Source: a virus (Duplodnaviria; Heunggongvirae; Uroviricota; Caudoviricetes). Taken from it: a DNA stretch of 24,712 nt. Below are positions 1,902 through 21,952 of the stretch, piece by piece. The DNA is taken from IMG/VR virus record IMGVR_UViG_2541047887_000002. One strand, 5' to 3'. The notes under the pieces were generated by a model, which was given only the letters and a program-made list of their open reading frames with translations, was not told where the DNA came from and did not search any database. The position numbers and the translations under genes are program-made. Within the stretch, counting starts at the first letter, position 1, and each line of letters begins with the position of its first letter.

Positions 1902-4900
1902 TCAGGCACTGCATAATCCTCCGTCCCGACGTGATGACTGCATAATTGACACAACCCTGCTGTCGATCAGATCCACCAGTCCCCTGGCTGAGCGCGCATC
2001 TATCTCGCCATTGCTCCCTTGATTCTGAATGCTGATGTGATACACGGGAGAATAAACAAATCCACCGCCACCATTCACATTTCCAATGGCCCTGACCCCA
2101 AGAGAGCCGTCCGCTGCCCGTGTCAGTGGCATGATTGCTTCAGGCCCGGCCTCGCCCATCAGCCCGGCACCTTTCGCAAAAGCAAAATACGTCGGGGTAT
2201 CCACAATGGTGTTACTGTAAGCACTCAGATTTGCCGATGTATAAACACCACCTTTTGCGTTTGCCACTGCACCGGAAAGCCAGTCGCCGACTGTACCAAG
2301 CCATCCTCCGGCACCGGACATGCTTTTGGAAAGTGACTTCAGCCCGTTAACGATGGCAGCGTTCATCAGAATTTTTGAAACTTCCTGGAGAATTGAACTC
2401 CCCCAGTTTCTCCAGTCCACAACATTTCCGGCCAGTGCATCGGAAATATTTGATACCAGCCCGTCCATAGTGGAAACGACAGCATCTGCCGCCTGCGAAG
2501 CATAATCGGTGGCACTGTCTGCCCAGTTCGTCAGTCCCTCCTGGAGTCCGGCATTCCAGTTACTGCGTAAAGCATCAGCCTTTGCATAATAATCCTGCTG
2601 ATCGCTGAGACGCTCTTCCAGATATTTTTCATTCAGAGATTTTTCCTGTTTCCACAGGGCTTCTTCAATTTCTCCGGCCTGATACTGTCTCAGTAGCTCG
2701 TTATTTTTCTGCTCAAACTCCTGCCGGATGCTCCACATTTCCTGAAGTCGTTCACGCATCCGTGAGCCTTCACCATATCCCAGTAACTGAGCCTCATTTG
2801 ATGCTCTGACACTGGCATTACTGTCCGCCAGACTGCTCTCATACGCAGCAAGCTGCTCACGAATCTTTTTCTGGTCGATGAGTGCTGCATTCTGCAAAAG
2901 CGTTTTTTTCTGCGCTTCTGACAGGGTTGATAATTCGCCCTGGCTGACCTGATATTTCATCTTAGCCAGTTCAGTATTCTGCCCTGCCAGTGCTATTTGC
3001 TCTTTTTGCTGTTTAATCAGTTGCTTATAAGTATCTTCTATTTTTTCCGCTTCGGTCTTTTTATGCGCTTTGGGTTTATTTGCCTGGTTATTTCGCCATG
3101 CATCCAGTGAGTTATTTATATAATTCAGTCTTGCTGTCTGATACGCCTCTCCCACAAAGCCGAGATCATCCGCAGCATAACCCAGGCGGGCACGCTCACG
3201 AGCTTCCCCCTTCAGGCGGGACAGAGCCAGTTCGCGCTCGCTGTTATTCAGTGCGGTCTGCTGTTTATCATCCAGGGTTGCCTGTGGTAGCCGTAACGGT
3301 ACATTCACCAGCCCCTGTCGCTGCTGAAGTAATTCATTACCGAGCCCGAGAAGGCGATTAAACTCGGTATGCTGCCCATTCATGATCAACAGGGACTGAT
3401 ACGCTTTGTTTTGTTCCGCTGCCTGTTGACGGATCAACGCCACCCGTCGCTCCTCCAGCCCGGCAAGCACATCCTGAATGGATTGCGCTTTGCCCTGCAT
3501 TTGAGTGAGGCGAGACTGTTCAACTGCCAGTTGATTTGTTGCTTCTGCAAGCCCTTCTGTGACAGTTTTTACCGACGTCATGTGGTTAATCATAAAACCG
3601 TTATCGGTTGTCCAGCCCGGGTTTGCCAGCACATACTGATAGCCAGCAATTTTTTCCTGTAAGGATTTAATCTTACTTTTCTGCTCGTCAATTAACCTGT
3701 TTTGCTCCTTCAGTGCCTGTCGCGTCTTTTCCTCATTATCTGACGCTTCAGGAAGCGACATTGCCGACGTTTTCTGGCGAATTTCGTCGATTGTTGCGGC
3801 ATACTGTCGTGCAGATTCTCTGGCCTGCTCCTGATTCTGATACATCGTGTACCAGGCCGCAGCCCCCAGCATGACGAGTCCCGGCACACCACCAACCAGC
3901 CCCAGCGCGCCACTTAATAAACGACTCCCCACTGACGTAACATTATTCAGCGTTGTCTGTGCCGCTGTTCTGGCCGCAATATTACGGGTAAGTGACACCT
4001 GGGCAGCTGTCAGCTTCGCTTCTGCTGCGGCCTGCCTTTCGGTACCGCGAGCAGCAACAACCGCCTGTTGCGCACGATAAACCGCCGCACGCGCCCTGGC
4101 GGTTGCTATCTGTGTCCCCCGAAGTTGCACTTCAGCAAGAGCCACTTCGTTTCTGGCTGCAGTAATTAATCCGGCAGTTGCAGATCCAGCAGACGACGCC
4201 ATATTGCCAAAATATCGGGCTACCCCGACGGCAACCAGAGCACCAGCAGCGGTTGCCACGGTGTCAATATTGCCTGCAATACCATTCAGCACACCGGAGA
4301 GCGTCTTCGTCACTCCGCTTGCCTCGTTCGCACCACCAACCCAGGCCATAAAGGCGTTTTCAACTTTGGTTGCAGAGGATGAAACCGTATCAGGCATTGC
4401 TGCATATTCATCACGCAACGCCCCAAGCTGACTAATCAGTGCAGGAACAACCTTATCGGCGGTCAGTTTTCCGTTATCCGCCATGGCCTTCAGATCCTTA
4501 CGGGCAACCCCCATTCCCGCAGCCAGCGCACGAATAACACGATCGCCGTTCTCATTCACCGAGTTAAACTCTTCACCGCGCAGCACTCCCTGCGCCAGTG
4601 CCTGACTGAACTGCGTGATCACCGAACTGGCTTCTGCTGTACTGGCACCGGATAATTTCAGGCCCGTGGAGATCGCCTCGGTGACTTTCAGTACCTCCTC
4701 AGAACTGTAACCATACTCCCGCATGGAAGCTGCAGAACGGGCAAAAAGGCTGGCGTTATCAGAAAACGCCGTCCCCGTTCTCTGGCTGATCGCCATTAAT
4801 TCACGCTGTGATGACTGAAAATCATCACTGGACTGTGAGGCCTGCTTCAGACGGGCATTTACTGAATTCCACTCATCGGCGAGAGAAATAAGATGACCGG

Positions 4901-13752: not shown

Positions 13753-14103
13753 TCAATTGATGCGTTCGCGCGCTGTTTTTGCTTTATGACAGGGCCAGCA
13801 CAGACTCTGCAGGTTACTGTCTGCATCTGTGCCACCATGAGCTTTCGGAATGATGTGGTCCACAGTTCTGGCTTCAACGGCTCTCCCATTGCGCAGGCAG
13901 TTCTGACACAGATGATTATCACGCTTCAGTATGCGCGCACGTATGGCATCCCATTTCGAGCCATAGCCACGCTGGTGGCGGCTCAGTCCGCGTTGATGCT
14001 TTACCCATCCTTCGCCACGATGTTTATCGCAGTAACCAGAACTGTCTGTGGTTGTACCTGCACATCCACGCTTACGGCAGGCGCGTGGGATTAGTGCTGG
14101 CAT
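13753..14103 (-). CDS. HNH homing-type endonuclease, terminase-associated
   Basis: 116-aa ORF with CxxC...HxxxxH...CxxCH HNH motifs (CQNCLRNG...DHIIPKAHGG...CWPCH). Sits next to the terminase as in HK97-like phages. Confidence 0.85.
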   Translation of the reverse strand: MPALIPRACRKRGCAGTTTDSSGYCDKHRGEGWVKHQRGLSRHQRGYGSKWDAIRARILKRDNHLCQNCLRNGRAVEARTVDHIIPKAHGGTDADSNLQSLCWPCHKAKTARERIN

Positions 14104-14241
14104 GTTTCGCCCTTATATAAATCAAAGGTGACCTGCATTGAGTATCTCCATGGAATAGATTTGCTGCTGATATGAGACAGATCAATAGACTTCATGAGCC
14201 AACGGGTGTAGATATTACTTTTTACTTCAGAGGGTTAACTC

Positions 14242-14781
14242 ATGGATATTAAAGATAAAATCAATACCATTTTGTTATGTGACATTGCCATCCACCTAGG
14301 TATCGAAACTGATATTGATCCACAGCTTGTTAAATATGCTGTGTCATCTGGTAATGATTGGGTTATCAAGGCCGAATATTCACATTTGGATGTTGACGAA
14401 CCAAGTAAAGAAGATCGTGATTTTGTTACTGCTGTCTTGAATATGTATCGCGGACTTTCCAATGCTTTCAGGAAACTTAGTGATGACGAGCAAAAAGAAT
14501 TAGTCCGTGACCATCATCTAAAAATACATGATGGGGCAATTCAGCTCCCAGGTTTCGACGGTAATAATGAATGCGATTACTTCAGTATCATTGAGGCATA
14601 TCAGAAAATTGATCGCTTCCCCGAACAGAAACAGCCCATTGCCAATACTCATTCACGTACAGAACATCTCTATAACGCAATGCTTGATGAGTTTAAGAAA
14701 ATTGACGCTGTAAATCGAAGCTGGGATTTATCGAAGGAAGAACTGGCATCCATTCTTTCCACAGCTCCACGCAGTTTCTAA
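14242..14781 (+). CDS. YfbU-family (UPF0304) protein, moron gene on the opposite strand to the late operon
   Basis: 179-aa ORF with ATG at 14242 and an AGGG Shine-Dalgarno. AT-rich by eye. Sequence reminiscent of E. coli YfbU. Followed by its own plus-strand terminator. Confidence 0.7.
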   Translation: MDIKDKINTILLCDIAIHLGIETDIDPQLVKYAVSSGNDWVIKAEYSHLDVDEPSKEDRDFVTAVLNMYRGLSNAFRKLSDDEQKELVRDHHLKIHDGAIQLPGFDGNNECDYFSIIEAYQKIDRFPEQKQPIANTHSRTEHLYNAMLDEFKKIDAVNRSWDLSKEELASILSTAPRSF

Positions 14782-14786
14782 GTGCT

Positions 14787-15053
14787 TTAGGCGGGTTTCC
14801 AACCCGCCTTATTATGCTCGTATATAGAGAAGGAAGCACCCAAATTAACCAGCGCGGATTTCTTTTCCTCAATACGGCTGTTAAGTTCAGCAACTGCATG
14901 CGGGCGTATGGCCTCAAGAAAAGCACTATATTGATAGGCAGACTGGATTGTCACACCAAGCCCTGCACCACTTTCCAGTATACCTTTCTGTCGCTGTAGC
15001 TCTTTCATCTCGTTATAGATGTAATGTGCGTTACTTAGGTTTTCTACGTTCAC
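14787..15053 (-). CDS. Hypothetical protein (88 aa, GTG start); may be spurious
   Basis: Six-frame ORF convergent with the YfbU-like gene. Its last codons run through the terminator hairpin. GGAAG lies about 10 nt upstream of the GTG. No recognisable motif. Confidence 0.3.
   Translation of the reverse strand: MNVENLSNAHYIYNEMKELQRQKGILESGAGLGVTIQSAYQYSAFLEAIRPHAVAELNSRIEEKKSALVNLGASFSIYEHNKAGWKPA
14789..14815 (+). terminator. Intrinsic terminator of the YfbU-like gene
   Basis: 9-bp stem AGGCGGGUU / AACCCGCCU with a 3-nt loop, followed by UUAUUAU, starting 8 nt after the stop codon. Confidence 0.6.
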
Positions 15054-15208
15054 GCCCTAAGTTCTTCCTGCAGTTAGCCTGCACTGATTTGTTATGCGCC
15101 AATATGTCCCGCTTCGTCTGTTGCATTATCATAAGTAATAGCGTAGGTTGACACCTTGGCTCTCTTTCGCCACCGGCGAATCTTTAGCGGATTATCCTTG
15201 GCCGGTTT

Positions 15209-15676
15209 TTATCTGAGACATTGCTCACGAATGTATAGCTGTGCCCCTTCCAGTTGCTTCTGCATCGTCATCAACCGTTCTCTGAGGGTGAAATAATCCC
15301 GTTCAGCGGTGTCTGCCAGTCTGGGGCTGGTTGCATTATCCACGCTGGTGGGTCCGGTGGCTTCACGCACGGCTGCGGAGCAACTGGCATTGACCCGCAG
15401 GCGCTTACGACCAGCGGCAACATCAGCGCGCAGAGTTTCATTTTCAGCTTTCGCATTGGCTAATTCTCTCGAGTACTTTGCATCGAGCGCAGCAACATCA
15501 CGCTGACGCTGTTGCATGTCAGCGATGGTGGCAGTCGCCTGCTTCAGCTCACTGACTTTTTTATCACGCTGTTCTTTGTAGGCGATGGCGTTATCACGGT
15601 AATGATTGACCGCCCACGACAGGCAGACGATGGTGCAGATAACCAGAGTATAAATAATCGCTGCGACTCTGCTCAC
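15209..15676 (-). CDS. Rz: Rz i-spanin
   Basis: GTG start overlapping the endolysin stop (GTGA), with a GGGGGA Shine-Dalgarno. N-terminal transmembrane segment and coiled-coil periplasmic domain; collinear with lambda Rz. Confidence 0.85.
15271..15456 (-). CDS. Rz1: Rz1 o-spanin lipoprotein, embedded in the +1 frame of Rz
   Basis: 61-aa [25 protein letters not shown]... with lipobox LVVSAC and a Pro-rich mature part ([24 protein letters not shown]). Confidence 0.85.
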
Positions 15677-16206
15677 TGATCTATCCCCCAACAGGCTAAT
15701 GCGCTTTCCTGGTCACGACGAATAACCTGTCCATAGCAGTTATTTGAACGTATGCGGCAATCGCGCCCACCATCTTTTATCCACCAGCGAATCGCCTCGC
15801 ATGCGCCCTTACGATCACCGGCATTCAGCCGCTTATAAAACGTCGACGGGAAACACTTACCGGGGCCAATGTTATAGGGACAGAATGACGCTATACCCGC
15901 TTTCTGTGGTTCGGTCAGTGGTACTTTAATATTGCGCTCTACCCATGCCAGCGCCTTATCACGTTCAATAGCGTTAACCTGGTCGCATTTTTCCTTCGAC
16001 AGCTTCATTCCCGGTATGACGGGCTTACCATCCACCATTGTGGCACCCCGACAGATGGTCCAGATGCCGGCCCCATCGCGGTATGCCGTTGTGTGGTTAC
16101 CTTCTTTTTCATCCAGAAACTGGTCGAGAATATCAGGCGCGGGCGCACCGACGGCAATCAGTGCCAGAACGGCAGCCGACAGGCCGTATCTGATTTTTGC
16201 GTTCAT
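15673..16206 (-). CDS. R: SAR endolysin (T4-lysozyme-like / GH24, phage 21 R type)
   Basis: 177-aa ORF with an N-terminal hydrophobic signal-anchor-release segment ([18 protein letters not shown]) and catalytic spacing E-8aa-D-5aa-T ([16 protein letters not shown]). Confidence 0.9.
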
Positions 16207-16269
16207 GGATATTTATCAGGATTTATCGGTTTCTGCCCACGGACAGGTTTATCTGTTCCGGTCAGTGAC

Positions 16270-16620
16270 TTAAGGTTGTGATTCCGGAGGAGTCTTCAGA
16301 GAACCAGTAATTCTTCCTGGTAGCTTTCCTTTGTAGGTTATCCACACATTCTGCGCCTCTAAAATTACGGGGCGCTTTTCCGGCGACTGCTCATCCCCTT
16401 CACATAACCCGGCAGCAACATCCAGGAAGACCTGTCTGATGCTCCTTCTGGCTGCTGCCTCATAAAACCCCAGCGCGGCACCTTCAACACGGTCCAGCGA
16501 GATGTCCAGGTCAAAAATTTCACCGTCAAAGCGTTTTTTGTCCCGTAACGCTAAAGTTACCGTAACTTTATTCTCAAAATTGCGGATCCCTTTCACAATC
16601 AGTTCATAGTTTTGAGTCAT
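16270..16620 (-). CDS. YdfR-like (DUF1327) phage protein between holin and endolysin
   Basis: 116-aa ORF in the position that ydfR occupies in the E. coli Qin prophage (essQ-ydfR-rrrQ). Its Shine-Dalgarno region now abuts the IS911 left end. Confidence 0.65.
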   Translation of the reverse strand: MTQNYELIVKGIRNFENKVTVTLALRDKKRFDGEIFDLDISLDRVEGAALGFYEAAARRSIRQVFLDVAAGLCEGDEQSPEKRPVILEAQNVWITYKGKLPGRITGSLKTPPESQP

Positions 16621-16629
16621 TGAATTACT

Positions 16630-16632
16630 CTC
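16630..16632. repeat. Target-site duplication CTC, left copy
   Basis: Identical 3-bp CTC flanks both IS ends (16630-16632 and 17883-17885). Confidence 0.7.
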
Positions 16633-16704
16633 TGAAGTGGTTTACTGAATTTGGCCACCTGAACAGAGGTGATATGCTCACCTCAGAACAACACAGGTGC
16701 CATA

Positions 16705-18093
<1,389 letters not shown>

Positions 18094-18230
18094 AGCCTCA
18101 CCTCCGCAGCGAACGGATGGCGTAGTTATAAGGGGAGCGAAAAAGAAAGAATGCGCGATTGCGCAATATGGTAACGTCAGGGTATTATCCACTGGCTGAA
18201 TAGATCACTTCACGTTTTTTGTTCCTTGCC

Positions 18231-18258
18231 GCCCGTATCCATATGCGGGCTTTTTTTT
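18231..18258 (+). terminator. Plus-strand intrinsic terminator-like hairpin upstream of the holin
   Basis: 8-bp stem GCCCGUAU / AUAUGCGGGC followed by eight U on the plus strand. Confidence 0.4.
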
Positions 18259-18264
18259 GCATGT

Positions 18265-18294
18265 AAAAAGGCCCCAACACATGTGCGTGGGGCC
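18265..18294 (-). terminator. Minus-strand intrinsic terminator-like hairpin
   Basis: Minus strand reads GGCCCCACGCACAUGUGUUGGGGCC followed by UUUUU. Confidence 0.45.
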
Positions 18295-18494
18295 TGAGAG
18301 TATACATGGTTTCAGTCAACTGCATGGTGCCGGGTGCCTCCCGGTGAATTCAGTACCAGCACCTGAATCCGCGATTATCCCATATACCTACTCGCTGATT
18401 GCCCCTCCGCACAGGGGGATTCACCATGCCAGTTTCTTTTAACAAACTCCCCGCAAAACAGACAACTGTCAACCGTCTGAATTGTGAGACATTT

Positions 18495-18520
18495 AAAAAA
18501 AAGGCCCGCAAAAGCGAGCC
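18495..18520 (-). terminator. Intrinsic terminator after the tRNA cluster
   Basis: Minus strand reads GGCUCGC-UUUU-GCGGGCC followed by eight U, about 15 nt after the 3' end of the last tRNA. Confidence 0.55.
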
Positions 18521-18534
18521 GGGAAAAATAAGTC

Positions 18535-18611
18535 TGGCGCGTTGTACTGGATTCGAACCAGTGACCGATTGCTTAGAAGGCAATTGCTCTGTCCGGTTGA
18601 GCTAACAACGC
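18535..18611 (-). tRNA. tRNA-Arg (anticodon UCU)
   Basis: Hand-folded cloverleaf: acceptor GCGUUGU/ACAACGC, D-stem GCUC/GAGC, anticodon stem AUUGC/GCAAU with loop CUUCUAA, T-loop UUCGAAU, encoded 3' CCA. Confidence 0.75.
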
Positions 18612-18624
18612 AGGGTACAGATAA

Positions 18625-18701
18625 TGGACCGCCATCGAGGACTCGAACCCCGCGCAACCAGCTTCGAAGGCTGGTGCTCTATCCTGATGAGCTAATGGCG
18701 G
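18625..18701 (-). tRNA. tRNA-Arg (anticodon UCG)
   Basis: Hand-folded cloverleaf: acceptor CCGCCAU/AUGGCGG, D-stem GCUC/GAGC, anticodon stem CCAGC/GCUGG with loop CUUCGAA, T-loop UUCGAGU, encoded CCA. The 5' end is uncertain by 1 nt. Confidence 0.65.
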
Positions 18702-18708
18702 TATGTGA

Positions 18709-18784
18709 TGGTGGCCCTTGCTGGATTTGAACCAGCGACCTGGCGATTATGAGTCGCTCGCTCTCACCTCTGAGCTAAAGGGCC
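18709..18784 (-). tRNA. tRNA with anticodon CAU, most likely tRNA-Ile2 (ileX/ileZ-like); elongator Met not excluded
   Basis: Sequence GGCCCUUUAGCUCAG...GACUCAUAAUCGC...GGUUCAAAUCCAGCAAGGGCCACCA closely resembles E. coli ileX as I recall it. Anticodon loop CUCAUAA. Confidence 0.7.
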
Positions 18785-18904
18785 GGGCGCAGGATAATAA
18801 CGTTACGAAATCAATGTTGCAAGCATTCAAAAATCACCTGGTTAAAAATCACCCTTAGCTCCTCCACCAGCGCATTCACCATGTCTATCCGAGATAAGTG
18901 GCAC

Positions 18905-18934
18905 AAAAAAACCCGCTTGTGGGCGGGTTTTGTT
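18905..18934 (-). terminator. Bidirectional intrinsic terminator, candidate tR' of the late promoter
   Basis: Stem AAACCCGC / GCGGGUUU flanked by an A-tract and a U-rich tract, about 60-90 nt downstream of the Q-like stop codon. Confidence 0.55.
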
Positions 18935-18994
18935 TGCTTTTGCCATCACGTACAAAATCGGCAAAATATCAGATTTGCATGAAATATATGCCTT
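18935..18994 (-). promoter_or_regulatory. Candidate late promoter pR' and qut region (position-based only)
   Basis: AT-rich gap between the Q-like stop and the terminator. I could not place convincing -35/-10 hexamers by eye. Confidence 0.3.
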
Positions 18995-19684
18995 TCAATC
19001 TACTTTTGCAACACTTTGCTTTGAAAATGCCGCCTTTTGTTTTGAACGTGTTCTCATTACAAACAATAAAGCCTCACTATCCAGTCGTTGAAAAATGTGT
19101 TTCATTGCAACCCAGTGACGAGTAAATGTTTTGGACCAGTTTTTAGTTGTCACTCCCGCCAGTAATGCCAGCTCCTGGTATTCATAACCTTCCCCACCAA
19201 AAAGTTCTGCTTTTACTGCCTGCGCCGCCAGCCAGATTAATTTTTTCAGGCGTTCCTGCGTTTTCCCTGCAATTTTTCTGGTACCGGATTGAGTATTAAA
19301 TTCATTCCACGCCCACTGTGTTATCGCGATCTGATATTCCCAACAAATACTCCCGCCGTAACACCACAACAACCAGGCTTTATGATGCTCTTCAAGAGAC
19401 AGCAAAGCCCGCCGCCATGATGATGTCGAAAACTCAACCGGGCTGACCAGGGCAATTGATGAGCCATTCGCCAGTGATTGTTTTCCCGGGATTGGTGGAT
19501 TATCCCGCGTTATCATTTTTCCAGTCACTTCATCGCGGTACCGGATTTTTTTTCGCCTGTAACGCCCTGTATCGAACATGGCATTCTCCTGCCAGGCTTC
19601 AAGCTGACCTTTTGTTGCCCCACTCAAATCAGCGGTGGCGATAATGAGCTGCTCACGCACAAACTGTAAATACTGGTTATTCAT
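18995..19684 (-). CDS. Putative late-gene antiterminator (Q-like), assigned by position
   Basis: 229-aa ORF with ATG at 19682-19684 overlapping the RusA stop (ATGA). It lies directly upstream of the terminator, tRNAs and lysis genes. No clear zinc-finger motif, so the identity is tentative. Confidence 0.5.
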   Translation of the reverse strand: MNNQYLQFVREQLIIATADLSGATKGQLEAWQENAMFDTGRYRRKKIRYRDEVTGKMITRDNPPIPGKQSLANGSSIALVSPVEFSTSSWRRALLSLEEHHKAWLLWCYGGSICWEYQIAITQWAWNEFNTQSGTRKIAGKTQERLKKLIWLAAQAVKAELFGGEGYEYQELALLAGVTTKNWSKTFTRHWVAMKHIFQRLDSEALLFVMRTRSKQKAAFSKQSVAKVD

Positions 19685-20046
19685 GCGCACTCCAGTTCTG
19701 TGATTTTTATCCCCAGCCGCCCACCAGGAACGAGCTGACCGCGCACAATATTGATTTCATCAAACTGCTCGTCGTCTATAAGTAGTCCGGCATGCGTCAG
19801 CGCATCCAGTGGTGCCTTCAGGATATTGTCCAGGTCACGACGGCGCTTATCCGGTGGCTCTGCAATAATCTTTATCGCCAGCCTTCCGGACAGGTTTAAT
19901 TTCAGCCGCTGCTGGCGAACAATTAGCGCCACATCACGGCGATAACGCTTTCCGGCTTCCGAGATGAAATACGTATTGCCATGACGTCGCCAGTAGGTAT
20001 TCACCGTCGGCGGGTAAGGCAAAACAAATTCTATGCGTTCAGTCAT
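19681..20046 (-). CDS. rusA: RusA Holliday junction resolvase
   Basis: 121-aa ORF with PYPPTVNTYWRR and DKRRRDLDNILKAPLDALTHAGLLIDD motifs, matching RusA (compare DRRRRDLDNLQKAAFDAL in E. coli RusA). Confidence 0.9.
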   Translation of the reverse strand: MTERIEFVLPYPPTVNTYWRRHGNTYFISEAGKRYRRDVALIVRQQRLKLNLSGRLAIKIIAEPPDKRRRDLDNILKAPLDALTHAGLLIDDEQFDEINIVRGQLVPGGRLGIKITELECA

Positions 20047-21543: not shown

Positions 21544-21699
21544 TTACTCCTCAGGTTCGTAGACTGTGAAGACAGCGACCTCCGTCTGGCCGGTTCGGAT
21601 TCGTACCTCGCAGAGGTCTTTCCTCGTTACCAGTGCCGTCACTATGACGGTTAAACAGATGACGATCAGGGCGATTAACATCGCCTTTTGCTGCTTCAT
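21544..21699 (-). CDS. hok: Hok-family type I toxin (HokD/RelF-like, 51 aa)
   Basis: MKQQKAMLIALIVICLTVIVTALVTRKDLCEVRIRTGQTEVAVFTVYEPEE is near-identical to E. coli HokD as I recall it. AAGGAG Shine-Dalgarno upstream. Confidence 0.85.
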   Translation of the reverse strand: MKQQKAMLIALIVICLTVIVTALVTRKDLCEVRIRTGQTEVAVFTVYEPEE

Positions 21700-21756
21700 A
21701 GCCTGCTTCTCCTTGCCTTTCGGCACGTAAGAGGCTAACCTAGATTTGCCGTTCAT
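21544..21756 (-). CDS. mok: Mok-like overlapping reading frame (translational coupler for hok)
   Basis: In-frame upstream extension of 70 aa from ATG 21754-21756, as in hok/mok/sok loci. Confidence 0.4.
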   Translation of the reverse strand: MNGKSRLASYVPKGKEKQAMKQQKAMLIALIVICLTVIVTALVTRKDLCEVRIRTGQTEVAVFTVYEPEE

Positions 21757-21952
21757 AGATTGAGCCTCAGATTAATGTTAAGCGTCTTGCAGGACGCGTA
21801 ATGTTAACTGGGGCTTTTCTCTATCTGCCTTTGGTGTTCATGCCTGAGGCAGATAGCCTCAAGCACCCGCAGCAATTCTACTTAAGTTAGATAAGCTTTT
21901 CTATGGTATTCTCTCAGCGTCCCGTAAATACAGTCTCGGCTCATCATTTTTA

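Follow-up and report, generated by a model that had tools for sequence, protein, structure and literature searches.

Convergent intrinsic terminators immediately upstream of a prophage holin gene raise the question of which transcripts end there. We analysed a window of 24,712 nt (the whole stretch of DNA under study), which is part of a lambdoid Escherichia coli prophage with its late genes on the minus strand. The original prediction described a plus-strand terminator at 18231-18258 and a minus-strand terminator at 18265-18294, lying 6 nt apart just upstream of the holin gene. These coordinates were confirmed by sequence and folding, and the holin start codon is at 18093-18091 (minus), so that the position relative to holin also holds. 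It was further supposed that two opposed transcription units normally meet at such a pair, while only minus-strand genes were evident. The first of these statements is borne out, with a predicted sRNA gene of ~64 nt as the plus-strand unit. The second has to be revised, since this predicted gene has a predicted promoter of its own on the plus strand (18159-18258 in all). We conclude that the hairpin pair is very probably the shared 3' boundary of two convergent sRNA genes, an 'sRNA dyad', located in the late-operon leader.

The locus and its facing terminators

On the late strand, the antiterminator gene Q is followed by the tRNAs, the dyad (18195-18458) and the holin start at 18093 (Table 1). 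Due to the lack of a moron or esterase gene here, the dyad lies directly between the tRNAs and holin. The order of the tRNAs matches ileZ-argN-argO of the Sakai prophages Sp4 and Sp5, which is the tRNA cluster of Stx-like phages with ileZ as its first gene. The tRNA at 18709-18784 (minus) was called tRNA-Met (CAT) by ARAGORN, and an identical gene is annotated in RefSeq as tRNA-Ile (ileZ type). Between Q and the tRNAs, a pR'-like promoter is found at 19011-18983 (minus), and a hairpin at 18908-18931 with A- and T-runs on both sides is a candidate for tR'; together they would yield a short StxS-like pR' RNA. Just downstream of this tR' candidate, 18890-18876 (minus) reads GGAUAGACAUGGUGA, identical to a homologous EPEC intergenic site that forms RIL-seq chimeras with MgrR. 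In the early region of the prophage, an Rfam match to the sok antitoxin RNA (111.7 bits, 21694-21868, minus) implies a putative hok/sok-type toxin-antitoxin module.

Table 1 Features of the late-operon leader around the facing terminators, in late-strand order.
Feature	Position	Strand	Remarks
Antiterminator Q	18995-19690	minus	first in late-strand order
tRNA cluster Ile2/Met-CAU, Arg-UCG, Arg-UCU	18535-18784	minus	upstream of dyad on late strand
Terminator 3' of tRNA cluster	18495-18520	minus	
STnc100-type sRNA (EcOnc27/sRNA103 type)	18259-18458	minus	Rfam RF02076
Minus intrinsic terminator	18265-18294	minus	bulged stem 18270-18294, then U5 18269-18265
Spacer GCATGT	18259-18264		6 nt between the T-runs
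Plus intrinsic terminator	18231-18258	plus	8-bp stem, loop CCAT, T8
Seed CCUUGCC	18224-18230	plus	abuts terminator stem
U-rich tract	18216-18223	plus	5' of seed
Predicted ~64-nt Hfq-type sRNA, EcOnc08 family	18195-18258	plus	antisense to late transcript; 5' end by analogy
Predicted sigma-70 promoter	18159-18188	plus	TTGCGC 18159-18164, 18-nt spacer, TATTAT 18183-18188
Palindrome TGCGCGATTGCGCA	18152-18165		overlaps -35 box of plus sRNA promoter
Class II holin gene	17728-18093	minus	downstream of dyad on late strand

The plus hairpin has the stem GCCCGTAT/ATGCGGGC (18231-18238/18243-18250), which encloses the loop CCAT and is followed by T8 at 18251-18258; its folding energy is -12.8 kcal/mol (z -3.1). 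The minus hairpin is more stable, with -19.1 kcal/mol (z -4.4), and none of 200 shuffled sequences folded as well. On the plus strand, CCTTGCC precedes the plus hairpin and TGAGAGTA follows the minus hairpin. As the T-run is on one side only of each hairpin, each terminator works one way. A single bidirectional terminator of the A-tract/stem/U-tract type was considered and rejected, because there are two separate stems, each with a T-run on one side only.

Chance seldom produces such an arrangement. Exactly one facing terminator pair, that at 18231-18294, occurs in the 24.7-kb window when loops of up to 12 nt are allowed, and any such pair was found in only 2 of 200 dinucleotide-preserving shuffles (mean 0.01); the loop limit was adopted after seeing the data and was applied to the shuffles by the same rule. 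A first chance simulation, before the loop limit was widened, had missed the bulged minus hairpin. Likewise, the automated terminator scan lists the plus hairpin and misses the minus one because its stem is bulged. Simple terminator-like sites showed no overall excess in the window (10 versus 8.6 expected). Terminator-like hairpins over the whole window are strand-biased, with 18 on the minus strand versus 4 on the plus strand, which fits a prophage segment in which almost all transcription is on the minus strand. Dozens of related prophage loci have the pair in the same place and orientation, although the hairpin sequences themselves differ; the spacer is 5-6 nt in all of these loci, and that of phiSTEC1589-Stx1c is the identical GCATGT.

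The two predicted sRNAs and their family

The minus-strand partner was matched by the Rfam model RF02076 over its full length (model positions 1-206) at 18458-18259 (minus), scoring 140.2 bits where the gathering threshold is 47 (E 2.8e-31). The minus hairpin aligns to the terminal helix of this model and the match ends exactly there; from this alignment, the minus hairpin is the predicted intrinsic terminator of STnc100. Members of the STnc100 family occupy the same slot in Sakai Sp5, Sakai Sp4 and EPEC PP6. In Sp5, STnc100 lies 75 nt after stx2B and contains the northern probe used for EcOnc27, and in the literature on EHEC Sakai, EcOnc27 (= sRNA103) binds Hfq and has a length of about 235-247 nt.

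The plus-strand unit reads, from 5' to 3', as a body, a U-rich tract, CCUUGCC, a GC-rich hairpin and U8, which is the layout of an Hfq-dependent trans-acting sRNA. A U-rich tract together with a GC hairpin and U8 is established as the usual Hfq-binding 3' module (PMC4104026). The predicted promoter of the plus-strand unit, TTGCGC-N18-TATTAT, was omitted by the automated promoter scan since its -35 box is weak, with 3 of 6 bases agreeing with the consensus. Nevertheless, TATTAT and the 18-nt spacing are constant across all aligned variants, and the promoter has a positional homologue in Sp5, the TTGCGC-N18-TAAAAT that precedes AsxR. The start of AsxR was mapped by 5' RLM-RACE (PMC4104026), and its 5' end (position 4682 of the Sp5 locus, L003) is the 7th base after the TAAAAT -10 box. 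By analogy with AsxR, we infer that the window sRNA starts at ~18195 and is ~64 nt long; expression of this particular allele is likewise expected from its homologues. The palindrome TGCGCGATTGCGCA that overlaps the -35 box reads on the late strand (18165-18152, minus) as a weak terminator-like hairpin followed by TTCTTTCTTT. Sakai Sp4, Sakai Sp5 and EPEC PP6 have all kept a related palindrome. In the minimum-energy fold of the window allele, part of the seed is sequestered in a 5' stem.

Longer transcripts have been published for homologues: the EHEC northern band for EcOnc08/21/42 is at ~271 nt (PMC4104026), and the estimated length of the EPEC homologue is ~182 nt (PMC8550237). Therefore, the main species may start upstream of the proposed promoter, and a longer species here may start inside the holin gene. 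A second plus promoter within the holin gene, suited to an antisense RNA of ~270 nt, was sought by eye and in the promoter scan, and no convincing one was found by the former and none by the latter. No ORF remnant is present between promoter and terminator. ORFs have been called over the dyad in public records, at 18185-18325 (minus) and 18281-18439 (plus); they are represented by the 46-aa hypothetical protein XSB43084.1 of PhiR49_2 and the RefSeq pseudo-CDS HLK60_RS25930. These ORFs, which overlie STnc100 and the hairpins, are probably spurious. Neither sRNA of the dyad is annotated in any RefSeq/GenBank record examined.

To place the plus-strand sRNA, we used a covariance model (R1) that draws on 8 EcOnc08-type variants and excludes the window allele. 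R1 matches 18194-18257 (plus) over its full length (model positions 1-70) with 53.8 bits (E 1.8e-10), and its next best match in the window has 16.8 bits. Relative to the family consensus, the window allele has three compensated pairs in the terminator stem. In an alignment of 10 distinct variants, 97.5% of stem cells form pairs, and in two of the pairs both partners are substituted, which is modest evidence of covariation given that the independent variants are few and the alignment was fitted to the model. The seed CCUUGCC is invariant in all family variants. These comparisons place the plus-strand sRNA in the EcOnc08 family as a divergent allele, with ~74% identity to EcOnc08. EcOnc08/21/42 of Sakai Sp4 and the Stx1 phage and the sRNA of EPEC PP6 are homologous to it from promoter to terminator, with the identical seed, and face the same partner in the same orientation. 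There are also differences. The U/G-rich tract of the window allele is 5 nt shorter than that of the EcOnc08 family, and the top of its terminator stem with the loop reads UAU-CCAU-AUG, as opposed to GCGU-CUCCCW-GCGC in the family.

For the homologues, binding by Hfq is on record. The layout facing the STnc100 terminator is also found in Sakai Sp4 and in prophage PP6 of EPEC E2348/69. EcOnc08 is an Hfq-CRAC peak (Table S2 of Tree et al. 2014, PMC4104026), and this peak in Sp4 (1179938-1180010, minus) coincides with the segment homologous to the window sRNA (L125 2439-2511). In EPEC, 'E2348C_1409.E2348C_1408.IGR' is an Hfq RIL-seq sRNA for which EcOnc08/21/42 are listed as homologues (Pearl Mizrahi et al. 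2021, PMC8550237), and its 3' end (1444797) falls on the homologous U-run. Hfq binding, expression and targets of the window allele are thus predicted from this published work on homologues, whereas its anatomy, its family relationship, its conservation and its independence of the neighbouring IS element are observed directly in the sequences compared here.

The window allele is present at >=99% identity, that is, at least 99%, in 97 of 5,426 complete E. coli genomes, and the EcOnc08 type (60-80% identity) in 673 of them. No intermediates between the two were found among these 5,426 genomes, nor was any annotation under any sRNA match in them. IMG/VR viral contigs were searched with CGGGCGGCAAGGAA, which gave many chance matches, and a BLAST filter kept ~45 of 120 loci. 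These ~45 loci represent 25 distinct sequences, in which the promoter, the seed, the terminator and the 5-6-nt spacer are conserved. A search of genome contigs with the 14-mer TTCCTTGCCGCCCG gave, among the matches listed, only chance matches in unrelated phyla.

Relation to published prophage dyads

Tree et al. (2014, PMC4104026) described convergent Hfq-binding sRNAs in eight Sakai prophages, where they occupy the moron site downstream of pR', and such 'dyads', located between the late promoter and the lysis genes, have been noted as an arrangement whose reason is unclear (Sy and Tree 2021, PMC7873438). The window agrees with them in position and in having two 3' ends that face each other on opposite strands. 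In the Sakai dyads, for instance EcOnc27/STnc100 versus AsxR in the Stx2 phage Sp5, the position after Q, the tRNAs and any moron and ahead of the lysis genes is the same as here, and so is the late-strand partner, STnc100. As predicted for the window, their antisense partner is short, starts from a TTGCGC-N18-TAnnAT promoter and stops at an intrinsic terminator, and the facing terminators are likewise only a few nt apart; in Sp5, STnc100 at 4423-4628 (+) faces AsxR at 4630-4682 (-). Unlike in the Sakai dyads, a moron (stx) is lacking here, as are the esterase and DUF6645 genes, and the antisense partner is neither AsxR nor AgvB. The window is one more example of the published prophage sRNA dyads, with a distinct allele as the antisense partner.

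AsxR and AgvB are prophage anti-sRNAs that act in trans by sponging FnrS and GcvB (PMC4104026). AsxR (RF02703) and AgvB (RF02702) share with the window sRNA the slot, the strand, the promoter position, the size class (51-60 nt) and GCCCG at the start of the terminator stem. Identity with either was ruled out, as neither Rfam model matches 17850-18560 at E values up to 10 and the ~42-nt 3' region that AsxR and AgvB share has no match here. Aligned with AsxR, the window sRNA is similar at the promoter and the stem base only and has a different body. The EcOnc08-family model recognizes only the terminator of AsxR (9.3 bits, E 2.2). The GcvB-target motif CACAACA is absent from 18195-18258.

PasA and PasC of EPEC are antisense, Hfq-bound prophage sRNAs (Zhu, Shabalina and Storz 2026, bioRxiv 10.64898/2026.05.13.724894). 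They lie immediately upstream of a class II holin gene, as does the pair studied here, but their slot is different, between an esterase gene and holin. Homology was ruled out, since a BLAST comparison of 17883-18320 with the PasA locus of E2348/69 aligned only the holin coding region.

The frame around the antisense sRNA also recurs with other contents. In phiSTEC1589-Stx1c (L127 1445-1511), TTGCGC-N18-TATTAT, T8 and GCATGT face an STnc100 terminator. The body of that sRNA is different, with the seed-like element CUUGCCAA, and it scores 31.7 bits against the EcOnc08 model. A different body in the same frame points to a slot that works like a cassette. Mosaicism is evident in the region: in the window, GCATGT and the 3' end of STnc100 resemble Sp5/phiSTEC1589, while the antisense sRNA resembles Sp4/EPEC PP6.

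Proposed function and alternative explanations

By analogy with the homologues, we propose that a trans-acting sRNA has the plus hairpin as its terminator and Hfq module. The sRNA (18195-18258) would be made from its own TTGCGC-N18-TATTAT promoter, and the plus hairpin would set its 3' end, serve with the U-tail as the module for Hfq binding and end protection, and prevent antisense transcription into STnc100 and the tRNAs. STnc100 would be transcribed in the late-gene direction and end at the minus hairpin, which would likewise provide it with a 3' end, an Hfq and end-protection module and transcript containment. Extending lambda biology to this prophage, the minus hairpin would stop polymerase unmodified by Q before holin in a lysogen, and Q-modified polymerase would pass it on induction.

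As to targets, GGCAAGG or GGCAGGG is common to the RIL-seq targets of the EPEC homologue, namely cfa, tir, the yagU IGR, pcm and emrA (Table S7, PMC8550237), and the seed CCUUGCC is the exact complement of GGCAAGG. The predicted duplex energies of the window allele with the targets equal those of the EPEC sRNA. They are better than those of shuffled controls for cfa, yagU, emrA and E2348C_3965, and not better for tir, pcm and dppA. Because the family seed is kept, the window allele probably targets the same host mRNAs as the EPEC homologue (cfa and others), in this case in non-EHEC strains.

Alternatively, the dyad may act mainly in cis. Antisense pairing (e.g. with RNase III cleavage) and convergent transcription would combine with the STnc100 terminator to hold back leaky late transcription in lysogens, or else they would separate STnc100 and any moron message from the lysis mRNA; the late transcript, abundant after induction, would titrate the sRNA. 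Indeed, the sRNA gene lies wholly within the late transcription unit on the opposite strand, and its RNA is perfectly complementary to the late/lysis leader ~100 nt upstream of the holin start. Moreover, prophages differ in the sRNA body but agree in its slot and in the spacing, antisense species of ~182-271 nt occur in EPEC and EHEC, and the literature leaves the reason for the dyad arrangement unclear (PMC7873438). However, the seed is strictly conserved and RIL-seq found trans targets for the homologue, AsxR and AgvB, which occupy this slot elsewhere, are trans-acting sponges of other sRNAs, and in other prophages the downstream gene is not holin. We thus consider a mainly cis-acting dyad improbable.

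A second cis role added to trans action is a related idea, which we regard as rather unlikely. The comparison of prophages suggests a cassette in which a fixed TTGCGC-N18-TAnnAT promoter and a terminator facing STnc100 enclose interchangeable bodies, those of AsxR, AgvB, EcOnc08, the phiSTEC1589 variant and the window allele. Here the antisense slot lies right on the holin leader. In addition to the trans action of the sRNA, it and the late transcript would titrate one another or be cleaved together, which would make the dyad a switch between lysogeny and induction. If true, such a switch would couple host sRNA networks to lysis and answer why these sRNAs come as dyads.

The IS element beside holin offers a quite different explanation. 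An IS3-family element (IS911/ISEc52-like) of 1250 bp at 16633-17882 interrupts the class II holin gene in its last codons and has a 3-bp target duplication (CTC). Owing to read-through into the IS, which replaces the last codon, the resulting holin has 121 aa, with 70 of its 71 native residues intact, the change E71V and 50 IS-derived residues, and the IS separates holin from the ydfR, lysozyme and Rz genes. Due to the altered holin and this separation, the prophage is probably lysis-defective. The original prediction proposed that the plus hairpin stops antisense transcripts running through the holin start, including IS911-type read-out. The transposase ORFs are on the plus strand and read towards holin, and the plus terminator lies in the path of such read-out, 140 nt beyond the start of holin, so that an incidental stop of this kind is physically plausible. 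As the origin of the hairpin it fails. The comparison with IS-free homologous prophages that had been proposed as a check goes against it, as M1/5 and PhiR49_2 carry the identical pair (100% over 161 nt): apart from the IS, 14001-19800 shows 100% identity with the E. coli M1/5 prophage, and 18090-18540 is 100% identical to phage PhiR49_2 from ECOR13. The pair is present in hundreds of genomes and in other contexts, including prophages in which the gene next to the homologous pair is an esterase or DUF6645 gene rather than holin, and a predicted promoter and a seed of its own stand in front of the hairpin. The exact IS-holin junction occurs in 0 of 5,426 complete E. coli genomes, which, together with the IS-free pairs, indicates that the IS is a recent arrival beside an old element. 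It is therefore very improbable that the hairpin exists for this purpose.

Equally improbable is a plus terminator left as a relic of a lost moron gene (the lost plus-strand cargo that had been suggested), or a pair formed as a recombination scar between mosaic modules: the region is indeed a mosaic of Sp5/phiSTEC1589-like and Sp4/PP6-like parts, and morons have been inserted and lost at this site (PMC4104026), but the short unit is intact and conserved in its promoter, U-tract, seed and compensated terminator stem, it holds no ORF remnant from promoter to terminator, and its homologues are expressed and Hfq-bound (PMC4104026, PMC8550237). The identical pair in IS-free prophages means that neither IS911 insulation nor lost cargo explains it.

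For the preferred reading, two convergent sRNA genes that end at a shared boundary, the window adds little that is new in principle, because convergent Hfq-binding pairs at this site have been published and the partners AsxR, AgvB and EcOnc27 have been studied. The EcOnc08-type family, however, is without an Rfam model, and in the records examined probably spurious ORFs are called over the sRNA. The conserved promoter and terminator frame around variable bodies could be used to find further prophage sRNAs.
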